The notes under the pieces are model-generated. The model did no database searches and was not told where the DNA came from. It saw only the letters and a list, made by a program, of their open reading frames with translations. From a virus, in IMG/VR virus record IMGVR_UViG_3300025450_000015, positions 64,001 to 128,000 of that record: a stretch of DNA of 64,000 nt. One strand, 5' to 3'. Positions 27,901 to 43,058 of this stretch are shown piece by piece. Every line of letters begins with the position of its first letter. Positions within the stretch are counted from its first letter, which is position 1. The translations under genes were made by a program, and so were the position numbers.

Positions 27901-30900
27901 ACTACAACAACCAGCAATTTAATTACAGTTGCAACTACAACAGGCTTATCAGTTGGACAGCAAGTGTACTTCACAGGTACAGTATTTGGTAATATTGTTC
28001 CAAGCCAGTTATACTATATTGCAAGTATCCCAACACCTGGAACTAACGGTACAATTACTGTTAGTTTAACATTTGGTGGCGGTAATGTGGCATTGATATC
28101 AGCAACTGGTACAATGACAATGGCATTCAATAACGCAGGCGGACTATGGAATAATACTACATACTGGATTAATTCATTGCAATCTGCCGCAACATTAAGC
28201 ACATTGGCAATTACTAGTACAACAGGTGTATTCAGTTGTGCAACAAGTTCAGTAACATTAACAGTAGGACAGCCAGTTGTTATTACTGGTACGTTCTCAG
28301 CTGGTAGTATCACTGGTTATACTAGTGGTGCAACATATTATATTATTGGTAATCCAACATCAACAGCTTTCCAATTGTCAGCAACATTAGGCGGAAGTGC
28401 TGTAACATCAACAACATCAGGTGGAACAATTACTGGTATTACTGTAACAGTTCCTGCCGCAACATTAACATTGACCAACAGCTTTAAGAGTGGTACAGCA
28501 TACACAATTACTAATACAGTAACTGGTATGTCAGCTACAACCACTGCTGGAGCAACAGTGACATGGCCATATTTAAATAATCCAATGATTAATGGTTCAT
28601 TAACTTACAATGATAACGTTCTAACAATTCAAGGCACAGAAATTCTTCGTGCTAACATTCCATTCCTGGCCGCAGAAGCATCTGCTTATACAGTAGCAAG
28701 TTACGGCGGTACAGTATCCAGTATAACATCTGGTAGTGTTGTTAATACAAGTGGCGCACATAATTTATTAGTAAATGACCCAGTAGTGTTTACTGGTACT
28801 GTTGGTTCAAGCAATATTGTTGCTGGTACTACTTATTATGTTTTAACTGTGCCAAGCTCAACAACATTTACTATCAGTGCAACTCAATATGGCACAGGTA
28901 CACAAACAACATTTACATTAGCAACAGGTTCGTTAGGAAGTTTAACTGTAGGCTACTACTATAACTATGCTAAGTGTGTACGCGATACAACAAACTTTAT
29001 CAATGCGTTGATTTATGATATTAATTATACAGGTAACTGGAAATCAATGCGTGCCGCAGAACTTTATGTTAACGCGGTGGCAGGATCTACAACACAAAAC
29101 TTCTATCTAGTAAGAAATGCATGTGGTATTCGTAATCAAACTATGAACGGATTGACTGGTGTTTTAAGTACAGCAAATGCTTATGGAACACGTCGACCAA
29201 CAGCAGGTGCGTATGCAAGTTTAGATCCAGGCTTTGGACCAAACGATCAAAATGCATGGGTCTATGCACGTTCAACATTCGTACAAAATTGTACAATGTT
29301 CGGTTACGCTTGCGTTGGCGCCAAAGTTGACGGTGCATTGCATGCCGGTGGATACAAATCAATGGTTGCAAACGACTATACTTGTGTTATCGGCGATGGT
29401 ATCGGTTGGTGGACAACTGGAACAGGTTCATTATCAGAACTTGTTTCAGTGTTTAACTACTACAGCTACGCTGGATACATGAGTGAATTAGGAGGACGCA
29501 TTCGTGCTACTAACGGTAACAGTTCATATGGTACATACGGTGTAGTTGCCGAAGGTGTTGACACATTTGAAACTCCAATTTACGGTACTGTAAATAACAG
29601 AAGTTACGGACCTCAAGTTACTAACGTGGTTACAGATAGTACAACACAAATTTTACGTTTAGAATACGAAAATGCAGGTACAAACTACACCAATGCTATA
29701 CCAACAATTAGTGGATCAGGTTATAACATTCTTTCTTTTGCAGATGAGTTCCGTGATGCTGGTGTATTTGAATCACGTTTAATTGACTTAAACAATGGTT
29801 TAGGTGTTGGCGGTTCAAGTTATGTAAGTTCTGTTAACGTAGGCCAAGGCGGTGCAGTAGGTTATATTACTATTGCGGCAGCCGACGTAGCATTGACTGG
29901 TTCATATAACGGAATGAAAGTACAAATTACTGCTGGTACAGGTGTTGGACAATATGCGTCAATACTAACTTATACTAACGGTAGTAAAATTGCACAAATT
30001 ATTCGTACAACATTTGCAACCTTAACTGTTACCAGTTCAAGTACTACTGCATTAACTGTGGCAAGTACTGCAACATTATATGTTGGTATGCCAATTTACT
30101 TGAGTACAACCGCTACTAATATGAATTTGACTGCATATCAAGTTTATTATGTACAGGCTATTTCAAGTACAACTCAGTTTACACTAGCATTAACATCAGG
30201 CGGTTCTGCAATTACTGGTTTAACAGCAACTAGTGGACAAACAGTCAGCTTATATGCCGCTGGTTGGGATCATGTTGTACCAGGTACTCCTATAGTTAAC
30301 ACATTAGATTTAACTACAGCATATATTATTGAACCTTATGTTTCATTCACAGGTCCAGGTTATGCCGCAACAGCAAGAACATTACCAGCTACAGCAATCT
30401 GGTCAAGTATTACATACGGTGCTGGAAATTATGTAGCAATTGCCAATGGTAGTACATCGACTGCAATTAGCACTAACGGTAAAACATGGACTCCAGGTGG
30501 TGCATTAACAGCTTCTGCATTTACAAACGTTGTTTACGGTGGAGGTCAAAGTGCTGCCGCAACAGTAACACTAGGTGGATTTGGCGGATCTGGTGCTCAG
30601 TTGACAGCAGTGATTGGTACTGGAACAAGTTTAGGACAAGTAGTTGGAGTCAACGTAATTAACGGCGGTTACAACTATAATACTGCTCCATCATTATTGT
30701 TTACAGGTGGTGGCGGTACCGGTGCCCAAGGAACAGCAGTTGTTCTTAACGGAGTAATTCAATCAGTTATTATTACAGTTAATGGTTCTGGATATACTTC
30801 AGCACCGACTGTAACAGTTGTAACTAGTGCTATTACTGCGATTACTCCTATCACTTGGGGTAAAAATTATTTCAATAGCGGAAACGTTAGCGTAACAATC

Positions 30901-33900
30901 AGTGCTCCATTTAGTGGAACTGTTTGGAGTGGAAGTTCGAGTGCAACAAGTGGCTCATACTATTACTATTATAGTGGTGCAACTCAAGCTACAAACTATT
31001 ACCTAGCAACATCGAGCGGAACATTTTCATCAACTGCTCCAACGTTTACAACAGGTACAGGATCTGCAGGAACATATGGTGTGTCATTGACATTCGTAGG
31101 TACTGCCGCAACTGCAACTCCAACATTGACAGATTACGGTGTCAGCAGTTACACAATTACTAACATTGGTTACGGTTATACTGCAACTCCTACTATTACA
31201 ATATTAGATACTAGTGCTAAATTTGTTGCAATTTCTACAACAACTACAGCAACAGCTTATAGTACAGTAGCTAATTTAGGATCATCTTGGACTTCTGGTA
31301 ACGCACTTCCATCCGCTGGATTTAACAGTTTAACTTATGGTAACGGAATTTATGTTGCAGTTGGTTACACTGGAACAACATCTAATGCCAGTGCTATTAT
31401 TACATCTAGTCCAGACGGTGTTACATGGACTGGCAGAACAGCTCCAAGCGGTGCAACACAAGCGTTTACATCTGTGGCATTTGGCTGGACTGGACCAGGA
31501 TCTAGTGCAACAACTACAGGTATGTTTGTAGCTATCGCAACTAACAGTACATCAACAGCTTACAGTACTAACGGTTTAACATGGACTACTGGTGGTGCAT
31601 TACCGTCAGTTGCTAACTGGTCTAGCGTAACTTATGGTAACGGACGTTTTGTTGCAGTAGCCGCAGGTAGCAATATTGTTGCATACAGCAACAACGGTGG
31701 TGTAACTTGGTACTCAAGTGTAGCAAATAACGGTACATACTTACCATTAGCACAAAACTGGGGAATCTCATACGGAGAAGGACAGTTCTTTGCAACAGCA
31801 ACAGGACCAACTCCTACAATGACAGCTACTACTTCAAGTGGTAACTTGATTACATTAAGCAGTACAGCCGGTTTGAACGTAGGAAATACTATTGTTCCAA
31901 CAGCAGTGACTGAAACTACAGTGGCTAGTCAGACAATTAATGCAACAGCAATTGGATTGTCAACATCGTTTATTTCTAACGGTATTGCAGGCAACGCAGG
32001 TACAACATTAACTGCACCAGTTGGTTTAGGTCCGTTTGCACTAGGTATGTATTTGACTGGTTCAAATGTGACATCAGGAACTTACATTACTGGTAGCAAT
32101 ACATTTAATTCAACATCGTCAACGATTGCAGGATCTATATTGACCATTGGCGGTACAGTTACTGGTACTGGTACAACCAGTGCTTATAGTGTACAACCTG
32201 GAATGGCATTAACTGGCGCACAATTTAACACTACAAGTTCATACATTTGGAACACGTACTATCCAAGTGGTGTACAAACTGGTGTATTTGTACCAGCAGG
32301 TACAACTACTGGTGTAATTACAACAGGTAGTCAGTTGAGCGGTACAAATATAACTACTGGTGCTACTTATATTGTTTCAAATCCAACTACTTCAGGTAGC
32401 ACAATTACTGGAACAGCATCTCCAAGCACAGTAGTTACATTCAACGGTAGTGTTTCTATAGTTAACGGACAAGGTATTTTAACTGTGTCTTCAACACCAA
32501 GCGGTGTTGGTATTCAACCAGGTTATATTCTAAGTGGTACAGGTGTTACAGCTGGCACAACTATTGTTGCACCATACGGTTCATCAACAACTCCAACTAG
32601 CTCAACCGGTCAGTGGATTGTCAGCGTAGCAACAGTAGTTAGTTCAACTGCATTGACAGGCACACCATATGTACTTACAACAACTGGTACTATCAACAAT
32701 AATACATTAATACCAGGTATGGTATTGGCTAGTACAGGCGGTACTGGTACAATTACCGCTGGTACATATATTACTGGACAAATCAGTACTACAAGTAGTG
32801 CGGTAGGTACAGGTACAGGAGTAAGCGGAACAATTGGTACTACTACACTAGTAATATCTGGTTCATCGACTGGATTCGCTGTAGGACAATTAATTACTGG
32901 CGGTAGTTTGTTCTATAACACTTATGTAGTTGCTGTTTCAGTTGCAACCAACACAACAATTACATTAAGTCAGCCATTATATGCAACAATCGGTGGCGGA
33001 ACATACAACGGTTATATTCCTGGTACTGCTGGACAATACTTTATTAGCACTACTAGTTTAGTAACCAGTGTTACTGTAACCGGTAATGCATGGGTAGCTA
33101 ACACTGGCTCATTAGTTCCATCTACAACAATAACAGGCGGATTGACTGCTTATATTGCATATCAAAATACAAGCTCTGCAAGTGCAGTAGCAAGTCCAAG
33201 TTGGGCATCTGGTGGTACTATTGGTGCAAGTTCTTTTGTTGTTAATACTGGAACAGGTATCGTAGCAGGCCAATTAATTATTGGTACAGGCATCCCATCA
33301 GGAACAGTAGTAGCAAGTTCATATGTTCCTGGTAGTACAACAGTTCCATTAGCCGTGGGAGTCGCAGGAGGCGCGGCGGCAACTATTGCTGGGTCAAATG
33401 CTACTGGTACTTATAACTTCTATACAGCAGGCGGAACTGGTACATACACATTGAATACTAGTGCATTAACTATTTCAAGTGCTCAGACAATTGGCGGACA
33501 AAGCTGGACAATTACTCCAAGTCAAACAGCGGCAGCTGGTGCAATCACTGGTACACAAAATACAATTACAGTTGGAAACACAGCCGGTATGTCAGTGGGC
33601 GAACCAATAGTGTTTACGAGTAATATTGTTAGCACAACATTGACTACAACAGCCGCTACTGGTAACTTGTTAACAGTTGGTACAACTGTTGGTATGGCGG
33701 TAGGTGCTCCAGTCGTGTTTACAGCAGTGACCCAAACTGGTAATATTACTTCTACATCTAGTACTGGTAACACAATTACATTGAACTCAACTACTGGTTT
33801 AGTACAAGGTGAAACTATTGTGTTCACAGCAGTTAGTCAAACAACTACATTAACTGCTACAACTAACGGATCATTTACATTATCAAGTTCTAGTATTACT

Positions 33901-36597
33901 AACAGTATATTAACTGTTGGTACTTTGAGTGCAGGTACAATCACTCCAGGAGCTGTTATTTCAGGTGGTAGTATTCCTGCTGGAACATATATTATATCAA
34001 ATATATCTGGTAGTGGTAACGGTAGTACTTGGAACGTAAGTACAAGTTCAGGATTTACACAAACTAGTACAAGTATTACAGGTACATTAAACATTATCAC
34101 TGTTAACTCTAACAGCGGTATGTTAATTGGTGAAACATTTACAGTTGCTACTAACGTAGGTAACTTGATTTCAGGTAACACATATTATATTACTAAAACT
34201 ATTAGTACTAACCAGCTTGCTGTAGGTACTGTGTATGGTGCCACAAGTGATTTGACTTTAGTAACAACTACTGGTCAAAGTGTTAGCGTAACAGCTGGTG
34301 CGACATTAGGCGGCGGTAATTTAACAGCTAGTACTACATTCTATATCACTAGTGTAGCAGGCAGTAATATTACAATTAGTACAGTATACAATGGTTCATC
34401 GGTAACTATTGCTAACGGTACAGGTGTATGGACATTTGTAGCAGGTGCCGCTTTTGGTAGTATTACAAGCGGTACAACATACTACGTTACAAGCATTCCA
34501 ACTCCGGGTGTAAACGGTACAATCACTGTAAGTACAACTTATGGCGGTTCTAACTTAACTGTAACAAACGGAAATGGATCATGGTCAGTAACTGAAGGTG
34601 CAACATTTGGTGGATTAACATCCGGCTCGACATATTTCATTACTGAAATTGTTGGAAGTACACTAATATCAGTAAGTACAATTTATGGTGGAACCAATGC
34701 GGTAGTTACTAACGCTGGCGGATCTTGGACTGCACAAGCAGGTTCATTATTTGGTAACTTGATTTCAGGTAATACATACTATATTGCTAGTATTGCAGGC
34801 AATCAGATTACTGTAAGTGCAAGTAGTACTTTATCTCCAGTAATTACATTAGTTAATGACACAGGTGCATGGACAAGTACAATTGGTACAAACATCGCGG
34901 CAACAAGTTGGGACGGTATCAACTGGACACAGCAAACATTGCCAACATACGCAAGTTGGATCACTCCATCATTTGGTAATCCATTAGTTACAACAACTGG
35001 TTACACACCACTATGGGTAACCGCAAGTAACCAATCTGGTACAGTAGCGGCAAGTATTCATACCGGTGCAACACCGTTGGCACGTACAAAAGTAGCTAGT
35101 GGTGCTTTAACTGAAATACGTATGATTGAACCAGGCAGTGGATTTGCTAAAGGTGTTGTTACTGGAACTACGTATGTTGCTGGTACAACAGTTACCGTAA
35201 CAGCCGTATCTGGAAATTCAATTACAATCGGTGCAACCAATTTAACAATTGGCCAACCAATTACATTTGCTACTGGGTTTGGTAACGTAGTTGCAAACAC
35301 AACTTATTATGTACAAGTAACAAGTTCAGGTACAACACTAACTATCAGTTCAACTTATTATGGTAGTCCATTTAATGCAGGTACTGCAAGTAGCATATCA
35401 GTAGCTGGTACAGTTGGACCATTGAATTTAATTACTGTAGATCAAACAGAAAACATGTATAATCTACAACCAATTGAATTCAATACTGTAAGCTCTGGCG
35501 GATTAAGCACACAAACAACTTACTATGTAATTGGATCAACAATTCAATCTACTACATTCCAAGTTGCAACTTCATCTGCATTGGCAACAATTGGTACTAG
35601 TGTTACATTAACAACAAGTACTCCAACTGGTATGCAATATACAACAGGACCAACATTAACTATTACCGATCCTAACCAAGTTAACAAAGCACCAACTCGT
35701 GTACGTACAGGTGATGGTGTGTTAGGTAACCCAAGTTTCCCATGTCGTGGTGCTGGAAATGCAACAGCAACAGCAAGTATTACTGGCGATGGATATGCTG
35801 ATATCTACCAGAATACAGCATTTATTAACGTTGCTAATTTATATGCATTACCTGCCGCAGGTGCTAACGTACAGTTCAGCAGTATTTCTAACGCATGGTA
35901 CAAACTAGTTGCTACAAGTAATCAATTAGGACAAGCAGGTAACTATACTGCTACATTCCAAGTAAGTCCAAGTCTAACAACTTATCTTGCTCCACCGAAC
36001 GGTGCATTGATTACTACAAGATTGAAATACAGTCAAACACGTTTAACTGGACATGACTTCTTGTATGTTGGCTCAGGTAACCAAACACAAACTAACTATC
36101 CAAACGTTACTGATGCAAATGCAATTCAGGCTAACCAAACATATCCAAATATTGGTGGTCGCGTATTCTTTACATCAACTGACCAAGACGGTAACTTTAA
36201 CGTTGGTAACTTGTTTGGAGTTCAACAAGCGACTGGTACAGCTACATTGAATGCCAACGCATTTAACTTAGCTGGATTACAGAGTTTGACACTAGGTTCA
36301 GTAAGTTTAGGTGTAAATAGTGCAACGATTACGCAATTTAGTACAGATCCGTACTTTACTGCTAATAGTGACAATATTTTACCAACACAAAAAGCTATTA
36401 AATCTTACATCACAGCCCAAATTGGTGGCGGATCAAGTAGTTTGAACGTAAATACACTAACGGCAGGACAGATATACATAGCTGGTAATACTATTAGTAA
36501 CCTAAATGGTAATCAAATTTATGTTAGCAGTAAGATGCTGTTCACAGGCGGAATTGACGGTGCTCCTGTAGCTACCGTATTCTTCTTATCAAGATAA
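21925..36597 (+). CDS. Giant tail fibre/baseplate protein (4890 aa), paralogue of 13353
   Basis: Same anchor motifs in the same order as 13353 (FKLGRIKF, PWATI, IIGDELRG, GGRIRATNGNSSYG, GWDHV, GHDFLYVG, STDQDGNFNVG), with many more inserted Thr/Gly-rich modules. Confidence 0.8.
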   Translation: MAQFKLGRIKFVYQGTWTTGTGYVVDDVVTVGGRTYICTTSNTASATFATDFSSGYWSVVADGSRWTGNWTNNQYYLVNDQVLYGGVVYLCTTAHTSASSTATITPTAATANGTTATLTFTALSSNIQPFLVGASITVSGFSAQTGFNGTFTVTACTATTVSYALAQSLTGTVMGTVSGTGTLGLEVNQSNWTSFASSFNWTGAWTINTRYKYNDLVSYGGLNYICNTAHVSANTTTLGLEANQSSWTVFNTGVAYQGLWNGNSTHYRINDIVKYGASLWICTTAHTSSGTFASANFSVFVNGLEYVSGGNNAWVGSITLTAASASGGTATLSFATQSAIPFAVGQSITVSGVTPSSFNGTFIVTGTPTTTQVSYALAGSLTGSVFGTVAANYVTGDIVSYGGNLYTAIASNTATTPSTGTASWQVFSTGFSFQGDWSGLTSYKIGQVVRLGGYTYMAMADNAQQTIIANQTSSGSNSVSVSATGSLVANLPIVFSGTSFGNIVSGTTYYVGTIIDSTHITLLTSSGGSTLAVTNATGSLTGTTQSQPPFSTYWTRLNAGIRWNAGTTQSYNGLSGTNITAAGSGAQFNVTTSGTTYSVTVKSGSQGTGYSASTTLKILGTQVGGISPANDITITITGVTAGAINLSSGITWTGYSVTWITASNYVLGDVVYFGANSYICVSAHTSASGNRPDADTTGTYWNLLASGAESAVLTTQGDLAYYGTNGPTRLPVGTDGQILRVGGTIPSWAYYGQINNIVYVSSTTGVDSLGASQGTTIDKPWATIRYACYQIENGYLNTNTTGLLSINKQFMLKEINNYVYYSYSFNVTGTSVQTITVGGTSSIAQTVTTNMYSGMPIVFTQTSGNIVAGTTYFVAQVINSTSFNIATTYANATAASPTLFTVGTGSANIGTYSYNQAKTERDTGTVIDGLLFDIGRGGNYKTTTNALAYFANSTTFATNVNAYDIPPFVSALNYLNTLATNYVLTNTSAAVSYQSTVWPGVTITGASGTGAVATITFATQPYVYPVGQFITVAGVNPSGYNGTYIVVASTLTSVSYASTTTTSYVSGGTVNVARATQQINTGYTAELTGVARVANLISIITSPLTLGYTTNVQPAATPNTTIFVKTGTYNEVLPIVVPSYTSIIGDELRGTVVQPAGPNLNMINDKTRSINSLTRIQSLIPNLLQNTAITPTSGNTQYLTVTGASGTGSVATLTFASQTSAPFNVNQYITVTSVNPSGYNGSYIVTAVTTNSVSYTSTTSASYVSGGVVSGQATGLPAGDVGSTTVVNQINTSVSLINDMIYNGLPKTPAITIPQLTGYNTSYLVGFGYGITQIQNNYLFIKAEIAAYLNTYYSSVWTTFGGTNQTETLRDIGFVLDGLQYDMTYGCNNQSIINGSSYYSLQIPQILASYNAATVGALQRLQAIISQIVTGTSVTATSGNSVTQSTGGSAGSAAAASFAAGRVGDVIYWLQNATSNATTLTLVGSVSGTTLTVTSGTGNGIYIGSMLTGTGVVAGTYIVNQLTSSASATAATTLASGGSAGTNTFVVSSATGIAAGQLITGTNLPAGSYVSSSYISGTSITVVNAFGAPQNFTSTGGTGAYLFYPANGAGTYTLSTSGNTGTTFTALSTFTPVTSGAYALVTNQYLQTAYNNLIARQTEIASDAQVWVQKYYQAYPISQSLTQRDAGYIALALAWDVLFGTNFNSIACGRAFNRLNASALALVANTNQELNATTGAITFIGFKAKQIASAGSTVQAQTLIDDIVTKINGQVAFNTVGSAILAGTQTIAYGTADVITVTTSGGTATFSVSLTPATTGQTITYITAGGLATFSSAQTLVKGTSVTLAAAAGGMSAGTYYVTTGVNNSFTVSLSSSYANAVAGTPGSFTGGTVTGAVGVVTIGTYYNTIASVTVTSGGNWNNTSLYSAAQATTTTSSGQGLTLSLGFVSSSYSTTVAGVQTSSNIVTLGSTAGMPTNMPITFSGLPALGSVTATATTTTSNLITVATTTGLSVGQQVYFTGTVFGNIVPSQLYYIASIPTPGTNGTITVSLTFGGGNVALISATGTMTMAFNNAGGLWNNTTYWINSLQSAATLSTLAITSTTGVFSCATSSVTLTVGQPVVITGTFSAGSITGYTSGATYYIIGNPTSTAFQLSATLGGSAVTSTTSGGTITGITVTVPAATLTLTNSFKSGTAYTITNTVTGMSATTTAGATVTWPYLNNPMINGSLTYNDNVLTIQGTEILRANIPFLAAEASAYTVASYGGTVSSITSGSVVNTSGAHNLLVNDPVVFTGTVGSSNIVAGTTYYVLTVPSSTTFTISATQYGTGTQTTFTLATGSLGSLTVGYYYNYAKCVRDTTNFINALIYDINYTGNWKSMRAAELYVNAVAGSTTQNFYLVRNACGIRNQTMNGLTGVLSTANAYGTRRPTAGAYASLDPGFGPNDQNAWVYARSTFVQNCTMFGYACVGAKVDGALHAGGYKSMVANDYTCVIGDGIGWWTTGTGSLSELVSVFNYYSYAGYMSELGGRIRATNGNSSYGTYGVVAEGVDTFETPIYGTVNNRSYGPQVTNVVTDSTTQILRLEYENAGTNYTNAIPTISGSGYNILSFADEFRDAGVFESRLIDLNNGLGVGGSSYVSSVNVGQGGAVGYITIAAADVALTGSYNGMKVQITAGTGVGQYASILTYTNGSKIAQIIRTTFATLTVTSSSTTALTVASTATLYVGMPIYLSTTATNMNLTAYQVYYVQAISSTTQFTLALTSGGSAITGLTATSGQTVSLYAAGWDHVVPGTPIVNTLDLTTAYIIEPYVSFTGPGYAATARTLPATAIWSSITYGAGNYVAIANGSTSTAISTNGKTWTPGGALTASAFTNVVYGGGQSAAATVTLGGFGGSGAQLTAVIGTGTSLGQVVGVNVINGGYNYNTAPSLLFTGGGGTGAQGTAVVLNGVIQSVIITVNGSGYTSAPTVTVVTSAITAITPITWGKNYFNSGNVSVTISAPFSGTVWSGSSSATSGSYYYYYSGATQATNYYLATSSGTFSSTAPTFTTGTGSAGTYGVSLTFVGTAATATPTLTDYGVSSYTITNIGYGYTATPTITILDTSAKFVAISTTTTATAYSTVANLGSSWTSGNALPSAGFNSLTYGNGIYVAVGYTGTTSNASAIITSSPDGVTWTGRTAPSGATQAFTSVAFGWTGPGSSATTTGMFVAIATNSTSTAYSTNGLTWTTGGALPSVANWSSVTYGNGRFVAVAAGSNIVAYSNNGGVTWYSSVANNGTYLPLAQNWGISYGEGQFFATATGPTPTMTATTSSGNLITLSSTAGLNVGNTIVPTAVTETTVASQTINATAIGLSTSFISNGIAGNAGTTLTAPVGLGPFALGMYLTGSNVTSGTYITGSNTFNSTSSTIAGSILTIGGTVTGTGTTSAYSVQPGMALTGAQFNTTSSYIWNTYYPSGVQTGVFVPAGTTTGVITTGSQLSGTNITTGATYIVSNPTTSGSTITGTASPSTVVTFNGSVSIVNGQGILTVSSTPSGVGIQPGYILSGTGVTAGTTIVAPYGSSTTPTSSTGQWIVSVATVVSSTALTGTPYVLTTTGTINNNTLIPGMVLASTGGTGTITAGTYITGQISTTSSAVGTGTGVSGTIGTTTLVISGSSTGFAVGQLITGGSLFYNTYVVAVSVATNTTITLSQPLYATIGGGTYNGYIPGTAGQYFISTTSLVTSVTVTGNAWVANTGSLVPSTTITGGLTAYIAYQNTSSASAVASPSWASGGTIGASSFVVNTGTGIVAGQLIIGTGIPSGTVVASSYVPGSTTVPLAVGVAGGAAATIAGSNATGTYNFYTAGGTGTYTLNTSALTISSAQTIGGQSWTITPSQTAAAGAITGTQNTITVGNTAGMSVGEPIVFTSNIVSTTLTTTAATGNLLTVGTTVGMAVGAPVVFTAVTQTGNITSTSSTGNTITLNSTTGLVQGETIVFTAVSQTTTLTATTNGSFTLSSSSITNSILTVGTLSAGTITPGAVISGGSIPAGTYIISNISGSGNGSTWNVSTSSGFTQTSTSITGTLNIITVNSNSGMLIGETFTVATNVGNLISGNTYYITKTISTNQLAVGTVYGATSDLTLVTTTGQSVSVTAGATLGGGNLTASTTFYITSVAGSNITISTVYNGSSVTIANGTGVWTFVAGAAFGSITSGTTYYVTSIPTPGVNGTITVSTTYGGSNLTVTNGNGSWSVTEGATFGGLTSGSTYFITEIVGSTLISVSTIYGGTNAVVTNAGGSWTAQAGSLFGNLISGNTYYIASIAGNQITVSASSTLSPVITLVNDTGAWTSTIGTNIAATSWDGINWTQQTLPTYASWITPSFGNPLVTTTGYTPLWVTASNQSGTVAASIHTGATPLARTKVASGALTEIRMIEPGSGFAKGVVTGTTYVAGTTVTVTAVSGNSITIGATNLTIGQPITFATGFGNVVANTTYYVQVTSSGTTLTISSTYYGSPFNAGTASSISVAGTVGPLNLITVDQTENMYNLQPIEFNTVSSGGLSTQTTYYVIGSTIQSTTFQVATSSALATIGTSVTLTTSTPTGMQYTTGPTLTITDPNQVNKAPTRVRTGDGVLGNPSFPCRGAGNATATASITGDGYADIYQNTAFINVANLYALPAAGANVQFSSISNAWYKLVATSNQLGQAGNYTATFQVSPSLTTYLAPPNGALITTRLKYSQTRLTGHDFLYVGSGNQTQTNYPNVTDANAIQANQTYPNIGGRVFFTSTDQDGNFNVGNLFGVQQATGTATLNANAFNLAGLQSLTLGSVSLGVNSATITQFSTDPYFTANSDNILPTQKAIKSYITAQIGGGSSSLNVNTLTAGQIYIAGNTISNLNGNQIYVSSKMLFTGGIDGAPVATVFFLSR

Positions 36598-36978: not shown

Positions 36979-38949
36979 ATGGCACGTTATAATACATCGC
37001 TGGCAACAGAAATTGTTTCCGGAGCACAAACTCTGTTAACACCTGCACAAGGTGGTTACACAGAATTTCAAGGATCTGCACCGTACACGGTGGTTATCCC
37101 AGGACCAACATTATTTTTAGGACAGTCGCAAAGTTATTTTAACAACACTAGTGGTGTTGTTACACTTTCTGCTCCTAGCGGATATATTGCTGGTAGTCCT
37201 AGTTCTCCGGTGTTTAACGGACCAGGTGGTTCTAGTACAAACTTATTGGCCATGCCAGCAGGATCTAGTTGTATTATTGGATCTGATGGTACTAACTATA
37301 GTATAATTACATTCCCAGGCGGTAATCAATTTGGTATTAACGGAACTTTTTCAGCTGATTTGATTAGTACCAATACTGGTACCACCAATATCTACAATAC
37401 AAATACTCAGACAGTTAACTTTGCAGGCGCGGCAACTAGTATCAATATTGGTTCTAGCACTGGTACAACTACTATTAACAATCAATTGTTAGTAAAAGGC
37501 GGAACAGTTGTTCTTAACTCTAGTTCAGTACGTACAGAAGATAAAAATATTGAAATTGGATATGTTAATCCAGTTACTTATGGTGGCGGTACTGTTACAA
37601 CTATCGGTGGTGCGTTAGGCGGTAGTACAACATTTACAAGTATTACTGGTACAAAAGTAACTGGTGCAGGTACATACAGTGGTGTTGGACAATTTGCTAC
37701 AAGTGGTAGCGGATCGGGTGCAACTTTTAACATCACTACAACTGGGTCAGGTACAACTTATACTGGTGTAACTACAATTACATTGGTTAATCCAGGAAGT
37801 AACTATGCAATCAATGATACAATTACTATTGGTGGTAACTTACTTGGTGGTACTAATAGTCCTAACAACTTAACATTCACTGTAAGCAACGTTAACTACA
37901 GTCCTTGGATTGCAACTATTACCGGTATGCCCAACACTACCAACTTGGTAAACGGTCAAGCTGTTAGTGCAACTAACGGTACAGGTAGTTTAGGCGGCGG
38001 CGGTACAAGTTATGTAATAAGCAACATTGTAAGTGGAACTAGTATTCAGGTAACAGTAACAGGCGGCACAACTCCTGTAGCTGGTACAATTACAGCTATT
38101 ACTCCAGGTAGTGCTGATACATTTGCCAACGGCGGCGGCATATTATTATATGGAACTAGTAATCACACATTACAATGGGCAAGCAGTACATTAGGTCCAA
38201 CAAGCGGTGGCGGTAACCCAGCTTGGGTTAGTTCAGAAGGGTTGTATATCAATACTTCTAATACATTTGGTATTCAAAGTGGTAGCAACGTTAACTTTAA
38301 CTTATTGACCAACGGTCAAGCTACTGGTACTGTTAACATTGCAACCAACGCTGGTACAGGTAACTTGTTTACTGGAGCAAGTTCAGCAGTTAACATTGGT
38401 GCTAGCGGTGGTACTGCTACAATCAGCAACACTAACTTTACAGTTGGACAGTCTGGTGGTACAGTTACTTTTAACGGTATTACAACTTTCACAATGAATA
38501 GCGTAACAGCGTTTAACTTAACTGGCGGCGGTACAATGAATGCTGGTAGTACATATGGTTATTTTAGTTCGCTAGGCGTTGGTACTAACACTAACGGTGG
38601 TGGTGGTACAATTTATGCGGCAAACAACATTGTTGCTTACTACTCAGATGACAGATTAAAGACACGTTTGGGCAAAATTGAAGATGCTCTTGCTAAGTTA
38701 GAAACATTAAATGGTTTTTACTTTGAAGCTAACCAAACTGCTCAGGATTTGGGATATACTGTTCAACGTGAAGTTGGAGTTTCTGCTCAAGAAGTTAATG
38801 CAATCCTGCCAGAAATTATCAAACCAGCTCCAATCGACGCTAAGTACATGACAGTTCAGTACGAAAAGTTATTACCATTAGTGATTGAAGCAGTTAAGGA
38901 ATTGTCAAGCCAAGTTAAAGAATTAAAAGCACAGATTAACAAGGAATAA
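36979..38949 (+). CDS. Tail fibre with C-terminal intramolecular chaperone (peptidase S74) domain
   Basis: YYSDDRLK autocleavage site, then GVSAQEV..ILPE, YMTVQYEKLLPLVIEAVKEL and a terminal coiled coil. Confidence 0.9.
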   Translation: MARYNTSLATEIVSGAQTLLTPAQGGYTEFQGSAPYTVVIPGPTLFLGQSQSYFNNTSGVVTLSAPSGYIAGSPSSPVFNGPGGSSTNLLAMPAGSSCIIGSDGTNYSIITFPGGNQFGINGTFSADLISTNTGTTNIYNTNTQTVNFAGAATSINIGSSTGTTTINNQLLVKGGTVVLNSSSVRTEDKNIEIGYVNPVTYGGGTVTTIGGALGGSTTFTSITGTKVTGAGTYSGVGQFATSGSGSGATFNITTTGSGTTYTGVTTITLVNPGSNYAINDTITIGGNLLGGTNSPNNLTFTVSNVNYSPWIATITGMPNTTNLVNGQAVSATNGTGSLGGGGTSYVISNIVSGTSIQVTVTGGTTPVAGTITAITPGSADTFANGGGILLYGTSNHTLQWASSTLGPTSGGGNPAWVSSEGLYINTSNTFGIQSGSNVNFNLLTNGQATGTVNIATNAGTGNLFTGASSAVNIGASGGTATISNTNFTVGQSGGTVTFNGITTFTMNSVTAFNLTGGGTMNAGSTYGYFSSLGVGTNTNGGGGTIYAANNIVAYYSDDRLKTRLGKIEDALAKLETLNGFYFEANQTAQDLGYTVQREVGVSAQEVNAILPEIIKPAPIDAKYMTVQYEKLLPLVIEAVKELSSQVKELKAQINKE

Positions 38950-38952
38950 ACG

Positions 38953-39354
38953 ATGACAACTCCTTCAAGTCCTATTTATATTAGTCAAATTGACGGCGAA
39001 ATTGGACTGCCTAACAGCAGTCCATACAGCAATTTGAGTAATCTTAATGGATATGTAATTCCAGGACAACGTGATAGTTACCCAACTATGAACGAAATGC
39101 GTAACAGAGCATACTATCGTTCAAATAACAAGGGTAATTGCAACAACGGAAATTGTCCAAATAATTGTAATTGTGGTAACATTTGCTGTACAAACTGTTA
39201 TAATTGTAATAACATCAATTGCACAAATTGCGATGGTCAAAACTGGTTACAAAACAACTGTAATTGCAACTGCACTTACAACTGTAACATTAATACCAAC
39301 GTATATTATAACTGTAATTGTAACTGTAATTGTAACTGTAACTGTAACTGCTAA
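38953..39354 (+). CDS. Cys/Asn-rich small protein; putative fibre-tip adhesin and radical SAM substrate
   Basis: 21 Cys in residues 63-133, 19 of them in Asn-Cys dipeptides, ending in (NC)7. Residues 1-62 have no Cys and start MTTPSSPIYISQIDGEIG. SD AAGGA; 3 nt after the fibre stop. Confidence 0.8.
   Translation: MTTPSSPIYISQIDGEIGLPNSSPYSNLSNLNGYVIPGQRDSYPTMNEMRNRAYYRSNNKGNCNNGNCPNNCNCGNICCTNCYNCNNINCTNCDGQNWLQNNCNCNCTYNCNINTNVYYNCNCNCNCNCNCNC
39310..39351 (+). repeat. (AAYTGY)7 hexamer repeat encoding (Asn-Cys)7
   Basis: AACTGT AATTGT AACTGT AATTGT AACTGT AACTGT AACTGC, varying only at synonymous third positions. Confidence 0.9.
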
Positions 39355-39372
39355 TATACCACAAGGAATCTT

Positions 39373-40839
39373 ATGATTTTTGAAATACTGACAGAAAAGT
39401 TTGGATCAAACCCACCTGATCTAAGAACGTTCTTCTATGACAACGAAAAAAATGTCTTAAGCGATGAAACAGGATTCGTCTATGAGTATCCCGATGCTTA
39501 TGCAAATAATTTTGAAAATCGAGTACCATACAAACCATTTGATAAAGATCGTCCTTTAATTAAATCTCGCAGTACTAATCACGTAAAAATTCAACTAGGA
39601 TTAAGTTGTAATTATAGTTGTGATTATTGCAGTCAAAAATTTGTGGAACGCCCACGTGAAACTAATGCTAAAGACATTGAAAATTTTATGGAAATGTTTA
39701 AGACTTTAGAGTTTAACGAAGAAGACGGTTTACGAGTTGAATTTTGGGGAGGTGAACCTTTAGTTTACTGGAAGACATTAAAACCCCTGGCCGAAGCAGT
39801 AGCAGAATTTTTTAAAGATTGGAGAAAGAAACCAGTTTTTAGTATTATTACTAATGGTAGTATTTTAACAGAAGAAATCTGTGCTTGGCTATACAGTATG
39901 GAATTCCATGTAGCTATCAGTCATGACGGGCCAGGACAACATGTACGCGGACCAGATCCATTTGCAGATCCTAAGAAACGTGAAATTATTTTAGATTTAT
40001 ACCAGATTTTGCGTCCTTTAAATCGCATCAGTTTTAACTCAATGTTAAACAGACAAAATCTTAGTCGTAAAGCTATATTTGATTATTTTATTAATTTTAC
40101 AAATGATCCCAATGTTAGTTTAGGTGAAGGTACCTTTGTAGATGCATATGATGCCGATGGCCTACAACACAGTTTACAAACTAAACAAGATCATTTCGAA
40201 TTTAGAAAAATCGCGTTCGGAGAAATTTACGGATCTAACGGTGAAATCGGCTTTGGCAACATATTACAAAAAGTTGATAATTTCACAGAATCAGTATTGA
40301 CCCATCAGCAAGCAGACTATTTAGGTCAAAAATGCGGCATGGATGACGAAAGAACCGTTGCATTTGATTTAAACGGCAATGTAATTACTTGCCAAAATGT
40401 CAGTGCTATCGAAATTAACAAAAACGGAGAACCTCACTTAGGTGGTAAGATTACTGAGATCGAGGACGTAAAAATTACTACTAGTACACACTGGAGTAAT
40501 CGTGCAGAATGTCCAAGTTGTCCAGTGTTGCATATTTGTAAAGGTGCATGTATGTTCCTTTCAGATGAATTCTGGACTACAAGTTGCAATAACGCCTATA
40601 GCGATAACGTACCATTGTTTGCCGCAAGTATTGAAAAAATAACAGGTGGTTATGTTCCTTACCATATTAAGGGCAAAGGATTACCATTAGAGCGCCAAGA
40701 TATCTGGGGCGGTGTATTCAAACACGAAGAAGAAAAGAAAAAAATAATACCTATTAAGATTGTCAGTGAAAAAGTTGCTGTAATCGACAATGTCGAAGTT
40801 TACGGTAAGAGTTCCTTGATAAATACTGAACAGGAATAA
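39373..40839 (+). CDS. Radical SAM enzyme with SPASM domain (peptide/protein maturase type)
   Basis: CNYSCDYC (CxxxCxxC), FWGGEP, ITNG and ISHDG; full 7-Cys SPASM pattern C-x13-G-x4-C...CPSCPVLHICKGAC...C. Confidence 0.95.
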   Translation: MIFEILTEKFGSNPPDLRTFFYDNEKNVLSDETGFVYEYPDAYANNFENRVPYKPFDKDRPLIKSRSTNHVKIQLGLSCNYSCDYCSQKFVERPRETNAKDIENFMEMFKTLEFNEEDGLRVEFWGGEPLVYWKTLKPLAEAVAEFFKDWRKKPVFSIITNGSILTEEICAWLYSMEFHVAISHDGPGQHVRGPDPFADPKKREIILDLYQILRPLNRISFNSMLNRQNLSRKAIFDYFINFTNDPNVSLGEGTFVDAYDADGLQHSLQTKQDHFEFRKIAFGEIYGSNGEIGFGNILQKVDNFTESVLTHQQADYLGQKCGMDDERTVAFDLNGNVITCQNVSAIEINKNGEPHLGGKITEIEDVKITTSTHWSNRAECPSCPVLHICKGACMFLSDEFWTTSCNNAYSDNVPLFAASIEKITGGYVPYHIKGKGLPLERQDIWGGVFKHEEEKKKIIPIKIVSEKVAVIDNVEVYGKSSLINTEQE

Positions 40840-40852
40840 GGAATAGCAGATC

Positions 40853-41848
40853 ATGAATTTAACTCAAAATTTAATACAGTTTCAACATTCGCAGTTGATA
40901 GCACTAGATATAAAATTTACTGACACTGGATTTCAGTGGACAGTATTTGATGCCTATAAAAAATCAGAATTGCAGTTGGAATGGGCTAGTTTAGCAGATA
41001 ATACCGTTACTGCTAGAAAAGTAGCCGGAGTTAGATATCCAAGCCCTGCTGACGAATTTGCATGGGAAACAGAAACACATAGAGTTTATAGTCAAACTTC
41101 AGGAGTCTATCCTGGTGTAACAGCAGGAATTTCTGGAGAAATAAATTGGACAGATATTACCAACAATGAGGGATTTTCAGATCATGCTATTTTTGCAATC
41201 ACTCACCCAGCTGACCAAGTTACTGTAAGAAATTTAAATGTAAGATACGTTCAACAAACTGCTTTGAATACAAGAACAGGTATCCCATTATACAATTTAG
41301 TAGCCAATTCACAACTACATAAGAAAAATCCAGTTAGGGCAATGTCTTTGCAAAAGAATAGTCCTATGATTTTAATTTCTATTCCGTTTGCAGAAATGAA
41401 TCCATCAGATTGGAACATGATGGTTGCGTTGGGCGATAGCGATCCTGGCCTAGTAAGAATATCGTCAGGCGAACAATTCACAAATGTAATCACCGACGAG
41501 CTTGGCAGAATCGTATATACTATGCCAAAAGTTTATTTTACAAATAAGACTGCTACTGTCAGCCCAGACGGCTATGTCGATTTACCGTTTTACTTAGGAA
41601 CTCCTACCGATTTAAATCCCCCAGCAAAAACAAGCTCTGAGCATGGATTGCCTATAACGGATCACAATGCAACTATATATTTAAAAACTACGGCAGGTCA
41701 CTTGAATAAACAACAAGTACAAACAGTCAACGGTGTAGGAACTGTTCGTTTAATTGCAACACATCTTGTTCCAGGTGACACTATCACAGTAAGTTGTGGT
41801 TTTCAATATTGGTCAGGATCAGACGACTGCGTTATAACCGTACAATAA
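40853..41848 (+). CDS. Hypothetical protein with possible C-terminal Ig-like domain; radical SAM cassette partner
   Basis: 13 nt after the rSAM stop; beta-strand-rich C-terminus (IYLKTTAGHL...GTVRLIA...GDTITVSCGF); TAAATA at 40820-40825 upstream. Confidence 0.65.
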   Translation: MNLTQNLIQFQHSQLIALDIKFTDTGFQWTVFDAYKKSELQLEWASLADNTVTARKVAGVRYPSPADEFAWETETHRVYSQTSGVYPGVTAGISGEINWTDITNNEGFSDHAIFAITHPADQVTVRNLNVRYVQQTALNTRTGIPLYNLVANSQLHKKNPVRAMSLQKNSPMILISIPFAEMNPSDWNMMVALGDSDPGLVRISSGEQFTNVITDELGRIVYTMPKVYFTNKTATVSPDGYVDLPFYLGTPTDLNPPAKTSSEHGLPITDHNATIYLKTTAGHLNKQQVQTVNGVGTVRLIATHLVPGDTITVSCGFQYWSGSDDCVITVQ

Positions 41849-41855
41849 GGTTTTT

Positions 41856-43058
41856 ATGAAAATAGGCATTATAGGTAGTGGTACCGCCAGCGCCGTTTCA
41901 TTACTTGCAATTTTTGATAAATTTAAATTCCATAGATGCAAACACATAGATGTGTATTGCATATACAATCCTGACATTCCTGTAACTACTGTGGGCGAAA
42001 GTACTAGCCCTATAATGCCTAGTTTACTTTATCATGCTATTGATTTTTCTGTTACTGAAGAATTAAAAGAGTTCGATGGTACCCTTCGCTGGGGTACTCG
42101 TTACTACTGGGAAGATATTAATGATAAAAATTTCCTAGTAAGGCATGGACATACAGGATTGCATGTCAACAGTGAAAAATTTAGCGGATTTGTTATCAAC
42201 AAACTTGATAAATTATACGATAATTTTTTTCAAATACACGGTAATGTCTCAGACATAACACAAGATCATACTCACGTATCGATATTAGTCGACGGAGTGC
42301 AACATAAATTTGACTATATCATCGATTGTAGAGGATCACCGTCGGCCGAAGAAATGGATAGTGGACTATACGAATTTCCAAAATTTGAAACAGTTAACTC
42401 AGTAATACTATTTCCTGACTTTAAAGAGTATAACGAAGATTTAACAAGTGCATATCCACATGACGACGGCTGGATGTTTGGAGTACCATTAACTCATCGT
42501 AAAGCCTTTGGTTATCTATATAATAAAAATATAACAACTCAGGAAGAAGCGATTGAAAAATTTTCTAAATTAAAAAATATTGATGCTAGTAAATTAAGAA
42601 AATTTAGCTGGAGACAGTATTATAAAAAAGAAGCAATGAATGGACGCATATTATCCATGGGTAACAGACTATATTTTCTTGAACCTGCACAAGCATTGCC
42701 GTTACATTTTTATATAAATTTGTCTGTAGAGTTTATTGAAACATTAATTAAAGGTACTAATTTACAAACACCGCATTTTAATAGAGGAATTAATACTTCT
42801 TATCTTAAAAGTATGGAAGATATGTTGAATTTAGTTGCACTAAACTATGTAGGTCCTTGCAAAAAAGATACGCCTTTCTGGAATACAGTCACAGCACTGG
42901 CTAAAGAACGTTTACAAACATCGGAAAGATTTCAAAAATATGTAAGATTGTGTCAGCAGACTGGAGAATACGAGCAGTATTGGGCACACAATTCAGCCTT
43001 GATGAAAGAATATATCGAAGGCTTTGATATTAAACTAGATCAACTAAGTCAAATATAG
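41856..43058 (+). CDS. Tryptophan-halogenase-family flavoprotein (atypical active-site motifs)
   Basis: IGIIGSGTA FAD-binding start, TVGEST, DYIIDCRG, GWMFGVPL..RKAFGYLY and GNRLYFLEP. Confidence 0.85.
   Translation: MKIGIIGSGTASAVSLLAIFDKFKFHRCKHIDVYCIYNPDIPVTTVGESTSPIMPSLLYHAIDFSVTEELKEFDGTLRWGTRYYWEDINDKNFLVRHGHTGLHVNSEKFSGFVINKLDKLYDNFFQIHGNVSDITQDHTHVSILVDGVQHKFDYIIDCRGSPSAEEMDSGLYEFPKFETVNSVILFPDFKEYNEDLTSAYPHDDGWMFGVPLTHRKAFGYLYNKNITTQEEAIEKFSKLKNIDASKLRKFSWRQYYKKEAMNGRILSMGNRLYFLEPAQALPLHFYINLSVEFIETLIKGTNLQTPHFNRGINTSYLKSMEDMLNLVALNYVGPCKKDTPFWNTVTALAKERLQTSERFQKYVRLCQQTGEYEQYWAHNSALMKEYIEGFDIKLDQLSQI

Follow-up and report, generated by a model that had tools for sequence, protein, structure and literature searches.

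Asn-Cys tails on phage fibre-type proteins and their radical SAM/SPASM partner: a candidate route to chemically modified fibre tips

What is the role of a small phage protein with an Asn- and Cys-rich C-terminal half that is encoded between a tail fibre gene and the gene for a radical S-adenosylmethionine (SAM) enzyme? We examined this question for a 133-amino acid (aa) protein, here called the Asn-Cys protein, encoded in a 64,000-nucleotide (nt) stretch of viral DNA. This stretch, the window, lies within a 102-kb IMG/VR virus record (IMGVR_UViG_3300025450_000015) with a CheckV completeness of ~28%. The tips of tail fibres determine the hosts to which a phage can attach and its survival time outside the cell. 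To our knowledge, folding chaperones, self-cleavage, and bound metal ions make up all the chemistry known there. As described below, one radical SAM family and fibre-type proteins ending in alternating Asn-Cys are linked in a nearly one-to-one manner, which suggests that phages may routinely rebuild the chemistry of the tip.

The original prediction, made from the DNA letters alone, described a bipartite protein. Translation and residue counts reproduced this composition: residues 1-62 contain no Cys, and the 71 residues from 63 to 133 contain 21 Cys and 29 Asn (30% and 41%) and three Gly. There are 19 Asn-Cys dipeptides in the whole protein, and the core contains four Tyr and one Trp. The final 14 residues form (NC)7, which is encoded by AAC or AAT and TGT or TGC codons in mixed order; Tandem Repeats Finder detected a 6-nt unit with 88% matches in this DNA. 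The gene contains the sole in-frame Cys-rich stretch within a long open reading frame (ORF) in the window, and the whole virus record contains one N-module protein and one Asn-Cys array only. We divide the protein into a Cys-free N-terminal module (N-module), an Asn/Cys-rich core, and the (Asn-Cys)7 tail (Table 1).

Downstream of the Asn-Cys gene lies a gene for a radical SAM enzyme with a SPASM domain. Using an alignment of 11 homologues of this enzyme, we searched viral and bacterial sequences and examined the best 80 IMG/VR loci and the best 80 bacterial loci. The family was found on at least 567 IMG/VR viral contigs and at 189 bacterial-genome loci. An Asn-Cys-family gene adjoined the enzyme gene in 77 of the 80 IMG/VR loci, and the other three loci are cut by contig ends. 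Both gene orders occur. The Asn-Cys gene precedes the enzyme gene in 29 loci (28 stand-alone and one fused to a Peptidase_S74 domain, hereafter S74) and follows it in 48 loci, where 47 of the Asn-Cys genes are fused to an all-helical domain that we call domain X. Five further metagenome loci also contained an Asn-Cys gene beside the enzyme gene, including forms fused to S74 and to a Hint domain.

The best 80 bacterial loci were mostly from freshwater Burkholderiales (for example, Limnohabitans and Polynucleobacter), and an Asn-Cys-family gene was present in five only. An (xC)n run of at least three units was found in an ORF on the same strand in 63 of the 80 loci, and in 51 of the 52 with at least 3.8 kb of upstream DNA. 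These runs end at most five residues from the stop codon in 55 of the 63 loci; typical endings are N-C-N-C-N-C-N-C-D-C-Y-C and Y-N-C-N-C-D-C-N-C-C. In a reverse-frame control, runs were found in 5 of 80 loci, and in 0 of 80 when at least two NC were required. When ten of the tailed ORFs were sampled, seven matched PHROG tail-fibre families, one of them with collagen triple-helix repeats, and in an eighth the tail was followed by a Hint domain. The tailed bacterial ORFs, which are 190-620 aa long, carry neither the N-module nor the core. As a separate observation, modules of the enzyme and an (NC)n-tailed fibre are common in Limnohabitans, Polynucleobacter, Comamonadaceae, and Rhodoferax (L114-L193), and some assemblies hold several copies, with four loci in one Burkholderiaceae metagenome-assembled genome. 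These modules may belong to prophages, tailocins, or gene transfer agents.

Simple versions of the arrangement exist in two cultured phages, JWF and RSP15, which makes the idea of a modified tail directly testable. The fibre of Achromobacter phage JWF carries NCNCDCNCNCSC (N-C-N-C-D-C-N-C-N-C-S-C) directly before a Hint domain, and an enzyme 46% identical to that of the window is encoded two genes downstream. The side fibre of Ralstonia phage RSP15 ends NCQCGN and lies two genes before the enzyme gene; with two Cys only, this is a weak case. The linkage between the (NC)n tail and the enzyme is near-obligate across unrelated fibre proteins, and the tail is the only element present in all protein types beside the enzyme: the Asn-Cys family, the JWF fibre, and the putative prophage tail fibres, with the two-Cys version in RSP15. 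Since the tail is common to all partners of the enzyme, most of which are fibre-type, it is the conserved partner of the enzyme and the likeliest substrate or recognition site.

Comparison with relatives indicated what is conserved in these proteins. Relative to L011, whose neighbouring enzyme is 76% identical to that of the window, ~59 of 68 synonymous sites have changed, which is saturation, and each half of the gene shows a nonsynonymous divergence (dN) of 0.12. By this measure, the Asn-Cys ORF is a real gene under purifying selection, and a simple slippage artefact or non-coding repeat is ruled out by the saturated synonymous changes set against the low dN. The original prediction had taken the synonymous variation within (NC)7 as a sign of selection on the protein. 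The selection was borne out, but the number of repeats is not fixed: among 233 distinct members, the uninterrupted (xC)n run varies from 2 to 8 units with a mode of 4, and slippage-type change in tail length occurs between lineages. The residue at x is N in 58%, A in 20%, D in 16%, and Q in 2% of cases, so the kept feature of the tail is Cys alternating with a small or amide residue. In an alignment of 88 members, nine positions are invariant, namely eight Cys and N104. Among the core Cys, C63, C79, C90, C105, and C111 are invariant and C74, C82, C93, C103, and C107 nearly so.

The relatives are numerous in metagenomes, with at least 167 homologues of similar length and at least 137 longer ones (more than 300 clusters), and are labelled "hypothetical protein" at most. 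The 133-aa protein could not be assigned to a family by searches of Pfam, PHROG, and NCBIfam, and a PHROG search with this protein alone gave no match at E 0.01. A tblastn search of 50,697 phage records with the whole protein and with residues 1-62 also gave no match, probably due to the low-complexity filter and the shortness of the query, so that absence cannot be concluded from it. With the 6-kb cassette as query, megablast likewise gave no match. The longer relatives are fusions of 234-466 aa in which S74, Hint, or domain X directly follows the Asn-Cys tail. Of these, S74 and Hint serve to process the C-termini of fibres. No long fibre carrying the complete Asn-Cys core was found when such proteins were searched for.

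What might the enzyme do to the tail? It has a CxxxCxxC motif at residues 79-86 and seven further Cys (321, 340, 380, 383, 389, 393, and 405) conserved among the 11 homologues, which is the full SPASM set, and TIGR04085 scored above its cut-off. The best NCBIfam matches were the thioether-forming maturases PapB (74 bits; cut-off 340) and QhpD (69; cut-off 453), with CcpM and SCIFF (CteB; 43, cut-off 425) also among them; the anaerobic sulfatase maturase (anSME) family scored 45 bits (cut-off 349). Since all named families score far below their cut-offs and only anSME aligns over the full length, the enzyme forms a separate SPASM family (phrog_1802).

Several systems that produce RiPPs (peptides made by the ribosome and then modified post-translationally) share features with this cassette. 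In NxxcA/NxxcB, PapA/PapB (ranthipeptides), and SCIFF/CteB, a Cys-rich substrate gene lies beside the gene for a SPASM radical SAM enzyme, and thioether RiPP maturases are the best family matches to the enzyme core. NxxcB joins Cys to the beta-carbon of Asn and tolerates Ala, Gln, and Asp (PMC9389541); Asn, Ala, Asp, and Gln together occupy ~96% of the x positions in the (xC)n tail. The known systems act on short, leader-guided peptides, whereas the window family presents the C-terminal tail of mostly fibre-type proteins of 130-620 aa. Spacing also differs, being C-x-C in the window tail and NxxC or CxxxD in the thioether systems, and we found no RiPP recognition element (RRE), protease, or exporter in the window cassette. 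There is a precedent for a whole-protein substrate. In the maturation of quinohemoprotein amine dehydrogenase, QhpD cross-links Cys residues of an entire small protein subunit, which is then tailored by a flavoprotein of halogenase-like fold (PMC7876137). A SPASM enzyme and a halogenase-family flavoprotein are also encoded together in the window cassette, and QhpD is the second-best NCBIfam match. The likeness to QhpC/QhpD/QhpG stops at the low bit score and at the context, as there is no dehydrogenase context in the window. A QhpG-style idea, by which an aromatic residue before a conserved L-Q should track the halogenase-like gene, was rejected because there was no such tracking.

By analogy with these enzymes, the chemistry on the tail would most likely be thioether formation. 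This assignment rests on the enzyme core being closest to thioether SPASM enzymes, the residue tolerance of NxxcB, the whole-subunit precedent of QhpD, and the self-cleaving modules that follow the tail in relatives. Formylglycine-type oxidation or metal binding by the tail is possible. The target motif of anSME is C/S-x-P/A-x-R; this motif is not in the 133-aa sequence, and there is no sulfatase nearby. Like the enzyme proposed here, anSME acts on whole proteins without a leader, and the JWF GenBank record (KP202971) names the homologue of our enzyme anSME. The logic of a radical SAM/SPASM enzyme paired with a Cys-rich substrate is already known; what is new is the fibre-protein substrates, the C-x-C tail motif, and the phage setting.

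The other end of the protein points to the fibre. With a profile made from the N-terminal parts of ten Asn-Cys proteins, a search of 1.84 billion representatives retrieved 116 proteins. Besides Asn-Cys proteins, these included many Cys-free small proteins, which were reached with E values between 1e-5 and 1e-3 and whose module opens with M-T-L-P-x-S-G-x-I-S and closes with a conserved S-G-A-I-S-M-x-x-L-x-G-K. The two sets of N-termini aligned in hhalign with 98.7% probability (E 3.9e-16, 52 columns). In Pelagibacter phage HTVC008M, Vibrio phage PhiImVa-1, and Burkholderia phage DC1, the gene for the N-module protein starts at most 13 nt from, or overlaps, the end of a gene for a fibre with a C-terminal Peptidase_S74. 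At a fourth locus, on a metagenome contig, the N-module protein likewise follows a fragment whose C-terminus, by eye, closely matches the window S74 fibre. Thus, the module that the original prediction had likened to that of small proteins encoded after S74 fibres is real, and in the window the Asn-Cys gene begins 3 nt after the stop codon of such a fibre.

The N-module proteins of the three phages (HTVC008M gp065, PhiImVa-1 ORF94, and DC1 gp58; phrog_26817 / phrog_26746) resemble the window protein in their N-terminal 50-55 residues and in their position after an S74 fibre. In contrast to the window protein, they have no Cys-rich part and no radical SAM neighbour, and they are annotated as hypothetical only. 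The distal parts of N-module small proteins vary, matching Pfam Gly_rich_2, tail Collar, or nothing known, as expected for tip or adhesin proteins. On one viral contig (L043:311-1405), a 364-aa protein encoded directly before the enzyme joins the N-module to a Gly-rich domain and the Asn-Cys core; thus, both kinds of distal domain can share one chain. AlphaFold2 modelled residues 1-60 of the 133-aa protein, which include the N-module, with a confidence score (pLDDT) of ~80, and the matching part of a relative with 84-92. The N-module profile gave a chance match only against PDB sequences. From its distribution and position, the N-module fits a docking domain that would set variable tip domains on S74-processed fibres.

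The original prediction had compared the protein with gp38, the adhesin of T2- and S16-like phages (PDB 6f45; Pfam GP38 PF05268 and Gp38_N PF21721). Both proteins are small, are encoded directly after the distal fibre, and have a variable C-terminal part of unusual composition behind a short N-terminal domain. Some N-module relatives also have Gly-rich domains, as gp38 does. The gp37 fibre of S16 reportedly has a self-cleaving C-terminal chaperone. As an arrangement after an S74 fibre, the comparison is a fair analogy; homology to the gp38 N-domain was not established by the comparisons made. Only one PDB chain reached a Z score of 2 or more against our model in VIA-align, and this was gp38 residues 2-46 (6f45_D), a weak match with a Z of 2.7 and a root-mean-square deviation of 2.0 over 45 residues. 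Pfam gave no match to Gp38_N (PF21721) among the 88 members at E up to 10, hhalign against S16 gp38 gave a probability of 0.2%, and Foldseek against PDB returned nothing below E 5. The glycine-rich receptor-binding domain PF05268 was also not matched by the 133-aa protein or the 88 members. The two proteins differ distally, where gp38 has a polyglycine sandwich and no modifying enzyme and the 133-aa protein has its Asn/Cys-rich part. Moreover, the S74-fused relatives suggest a trimer, while gp38 is described as monomeric (PMC12032242).

We consider it reasonably probable that the Asn-Cys protein is a fibre-tip protein that docks through its N-module, with its Asn/Cys-rich part distal and its Cys tail modified by the radical SAM enzyme, most likely through thioether cross-links. 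The Cys-free N-module (approximately residues 1-53) would dock the protein onto a fibre, and in the window phage the docking site would most likely be the tip of the 656-aa fibre, exposed once the S74 chaperone has cleaved itself. The protein would then be present in the virion, and its core and (NC)7 tail would be the outermost part of the fibre. The alternating-Cys tail would be the substrate, or at least a recognition element, of the enzyme encoded 18 nt downstream. This enzyme would presumably act on the tail in the cytoplasm, where it would bond Cys sulfurs to a carbon atom of the Asn, Asp, or Ala residues that lie between them. The product would be a rigid, redox-insensitive tip that is built in a reducing compartment. 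The 331-aa protein encoded after the enzyme may be a recurrent helper or partner, and 2-oxoglutarate (2OG)-Fe(II) oxygenases and the halogenase-like flavoprotein may be optional tailoring enzymes. Since in relatives a self-cleaving S74 or Hint directly follows the last Cys, cleavage there would leave the modified tail as the free C-terminus of the mature protein.

Several observations weigh against this explanation. An S74-ending fibre lies immediately before the Asn-Cys gene in 10 of the 77 viral cassettes, and in five more an S74-ending ORF lies just before the enzyme gene; in 57 of the 77, BLAST detected no S74 fibre within 5 kb. Docking to an S74 fibre is thus positionally supported for part of the family only. 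Direct support for the predicted location in the virion did not come from the one virion proteome examined, that of Burkholderia phage JC1, which lists neither the N-module homologue gp58 nor the preceding fibre gp57 (PMC9144972). The similarity to the gp38 N-domain consists of the single structural match, which three other methods did not reproduce. In two AlphaFold2 models the Cys-rich part had a pLDDT below 45, so no fold comparison was possible. As for the chemistry, the only family and PDB match that covers both the radical SAM and SPASM parts of the enzyme (residues 75-393) is anSME, which makes formylglycine and not thioethers. Finally, Pfam and NCBIfam scans of the enzyme revealed neither an RRE domain nor a mode of recognition.

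Could the Cys-rich part simply bind metal? In this alternative, alternating Cys on one face of a strand would, when joined in a trimer, chelate ions along the axis, and the enzyme would have another or an auxiliary role. The needle of T4 gp37 has His-x-His iron sites to which such a tip can be likened. A Cys content of ~30% with strict C-x-C-x-C spacing would suit chelation, as would the position of the tail at the C-terminal end of trimer-type fibres, beside collagen repeats or an S74 chaperone, and the failure of AlphaFold2 to fold the core without ligands. However, classical metallothioneins have no aromatic residues, unlike the core with its four Tyr and one Trp, and metallothionein families matched none of the 88 members (Pfam, E up to 10). 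This explanation also does not account for why 77 of 80 viral and 51 of 52 bacterial loci have a SPASM enzyme together with the tail, and we regard it as unlikely.

We consider it rather improbable that the 133-aa protein, and the N-module family with it, is a helper in fibre assembly or tip maturation that is not kept in the virion, with a Cys part that functions only inside the cell. Genes just after fibre genes often encode assembly chaperones, one Gly-rich N-module protein weakly matched a PHROG named tail fiber assembly (E 0.0023), and the N-module homologue was not in the JC1 proteome (PMC9144972). However, the upstream fibres already carry an intramolecular chaperone, and N-module proteins bear receptor-binding-type domains (tail collar and Gly_rich_2). 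In the putative prophages, JWF, and RSP15, moreover, the tail belongs to the fibre polypeptide itself.

The layout of the protein also resembles that of a classical RiPP precursor, with a Cys-rich C-terminal part beside a SPASM maturase, and a cyanophage paper reads a phage radical SAM maturase as an antibiotic synthesis gene (PMC12801897). In such a precursor, the N-terminal 60 residues would be the leader for the enzyme and the Cys core would be freed as a toxin, signal, or metallophore. The original prediction had likewise proposed that the N-terminal domain may serve as a recognition leader. This role was ruled out: the N-module is widespread in proteins with no radical SAM gene nearby, and the partners of the enzyme include ORFs of 190-620 aa with the (NC)n tail but without the N-module, and most of those sampled are tail fibres. 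As the tail is the shared element, the N-module is not a dedicated leader. In addition, the tail is fused to fibre-type S74 chaperones in relatives, and Pfam and PHROG scans of four cassette genes found no peptidase, transporter, or exporter family. Together, these findings make a classical RiPP precursor very improbable.

We give very little credence to a disulfide ladder formed after lysis, with the gene order reflecting co-transfer and no shared function, because, although an oxidising extracellular environment would oxidise the 21 Cys and Cys-laddered beta-helices exist in insect antifreeze proteins, a linkage seen in three unrelated protein contexts, with both gene orders, and at enzyme identities of 34-100% is hard to explain without function. 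Neither metal binding nor disulfides explain the near-obligate enzyme partner.

We found no paper on the Asn-Cys family, the tail motif, or the link to radical SAM enzymes. The closest remarks in print are that pelagimyophages differ in the radical SAM cassettes of their host-recognition cluster (PMC7029224) and the above reading of a cyanophage maturase as an antibiotic gene (PMC12801897). Taken more broadly, we tentatively suggest that many receptor-binding fibres of phages are tagged with a C-terminal (Asn-Cys)n tail, from which a dedicated radical SAM/SPASM enzyme makes a covalently cross-linked or otherwise chemically altered tip. If so, no earlier case of a virion structural protein matured by a RiPP-type enzyme would be known, and the phenomenon would extend to aquatic T4-like phages, siphoviruses, many Burkholderiales prophages, and RSP15, whose record is classified under Ackermannviridae. 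It would also define a new class of protein-level radical SAM substrates, likely with a new cross-link topology (C-x-C ladders), and provide a handle on the host-recognition modules of uncultured aquatic phages.

Table 1. Features of the Asn-Cys cassette in the window
Feature	Coordinates	Strand	Description
656-aa tail fibre	36979..38949	+	Peptidase_S74 Pfam PF13884, E 2.7e-08; PHROG tail-fibre families
Peptidase_S74 self-cleaving chaperone, fibre residues 556-613	38644-38817	+	PF13884
Asn-Cys protein gene	38953..39354	+	133 aa; three parts
N-module, residues 1-53	38953..39111	+	Cys-free, probable fibre-docking domain; homologous to N-termini of Cys-free small proteins
Asn/Cys-rich core, residues 54-119	39112..39309	+	Begins with conserved Y-Y-x-x-N-x-x-G-N-C-N-N-G-N-C junction
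(Asn-Cys)7 C-terminal tail, residues 120-133	39310..39351	+	Common to the protein types beside the radical SAM family
488-aa radical SAM/SPASM enzyme	39373..40839	+	Pfam Radical_SAM, TIGR04085, phrog_1802 E 7e-62
331-aa protein	40853..41848	+	Third recurrent module member; homologous to Ralstonia phage RSP15 gp047, E 5.5e-10
400-aa flavin-dependent halogenase-family protein	41856..43058	+	Pfam Trp_halogenase E 1.3e-31; PDB RebH, PrnA, and phage enzyme VirX1

By its gp15-like and other structural genes, the window genome is that of a T4-like myovirus. The gene order is a 4890-aa ORF, a 112-aa protein, the 656-aa fibre, the Asn-Cys gene, the enzyme, the 331-aa protein, and the halogenase-family flavoprotein (Table 1). 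No terminator signal above chance was detected in the cassette, which together with the gaps of 3 and 18 nt on either side of the Asn-Cys gene fits an operon. The 4890-aa ORF (21925-36597) is a single reading frame ahead of the fibre module; in L006, a relative, this position is taken by an ORF of at least 3367 aa with a weak CBM_5_12 match.

Of the 80 bacterial loci, 37 contain a homologue of the 331-aa protein; in the five whose gene order was inspected, it directly follows the fibre with the (NC)n tail. The 331-aa protein itself matched no family or fold, and an Atlas search gave only weak Ig-like leads. No relation was detectable between the 331-aa and the 215-aa proteins, which are the partners in the two types of cassette.

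Genes for putative tailoring enzymes recur in the viral cassettes. Halogenase-like genes were present in approximately 18-20 of the 77. The halogenase-family protein of the window is short, with 400 aa compared to 510-550 for RebH and PrnA, and aligned with them over residues ~100-375; VirX1, which it also matched, is a cyanophage enzyme. Its activity may be halogenation or hydroxylation. Genes for 2OG-Fe(II) oxygenases (PF13759, TIGR02466 family) were found in approximately 54-57 of the 77 cassettes (L003:10789-11974; L034-L113), and Asn- or Asp-directed hydroxylation by these putative enzymes is a possibility. RSP15 gp046, which is encoded beside the radical SAM gene, shows an H-x-D...H pattern by eye.

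Fusion of the Asn-Cys tail to domain X is the commonest IMG/VR form, occurring in 47 of the 77 cassettes (for example, P0142 residues 124-299 and L049:6456-7376). Domain X is ~170 aa long and starts C-S-K-I-I-C-x-K-L; a shorter variant starts C-C-V-V-A-T-E-L. Searches with the AlphaFold2 model gave only sub-threshold matches to NEL ubiquitin-ligase domains in PDB (Z 5-6, below noise) and nothing in the Atlas. The model is all-helical, with a pLDDT of ~90 and a long hydrophobic C-terminal helix, and in BFVD it matched two far longer viral proteins, one of them named DUF4815, with 46% identity over ~200 columns.

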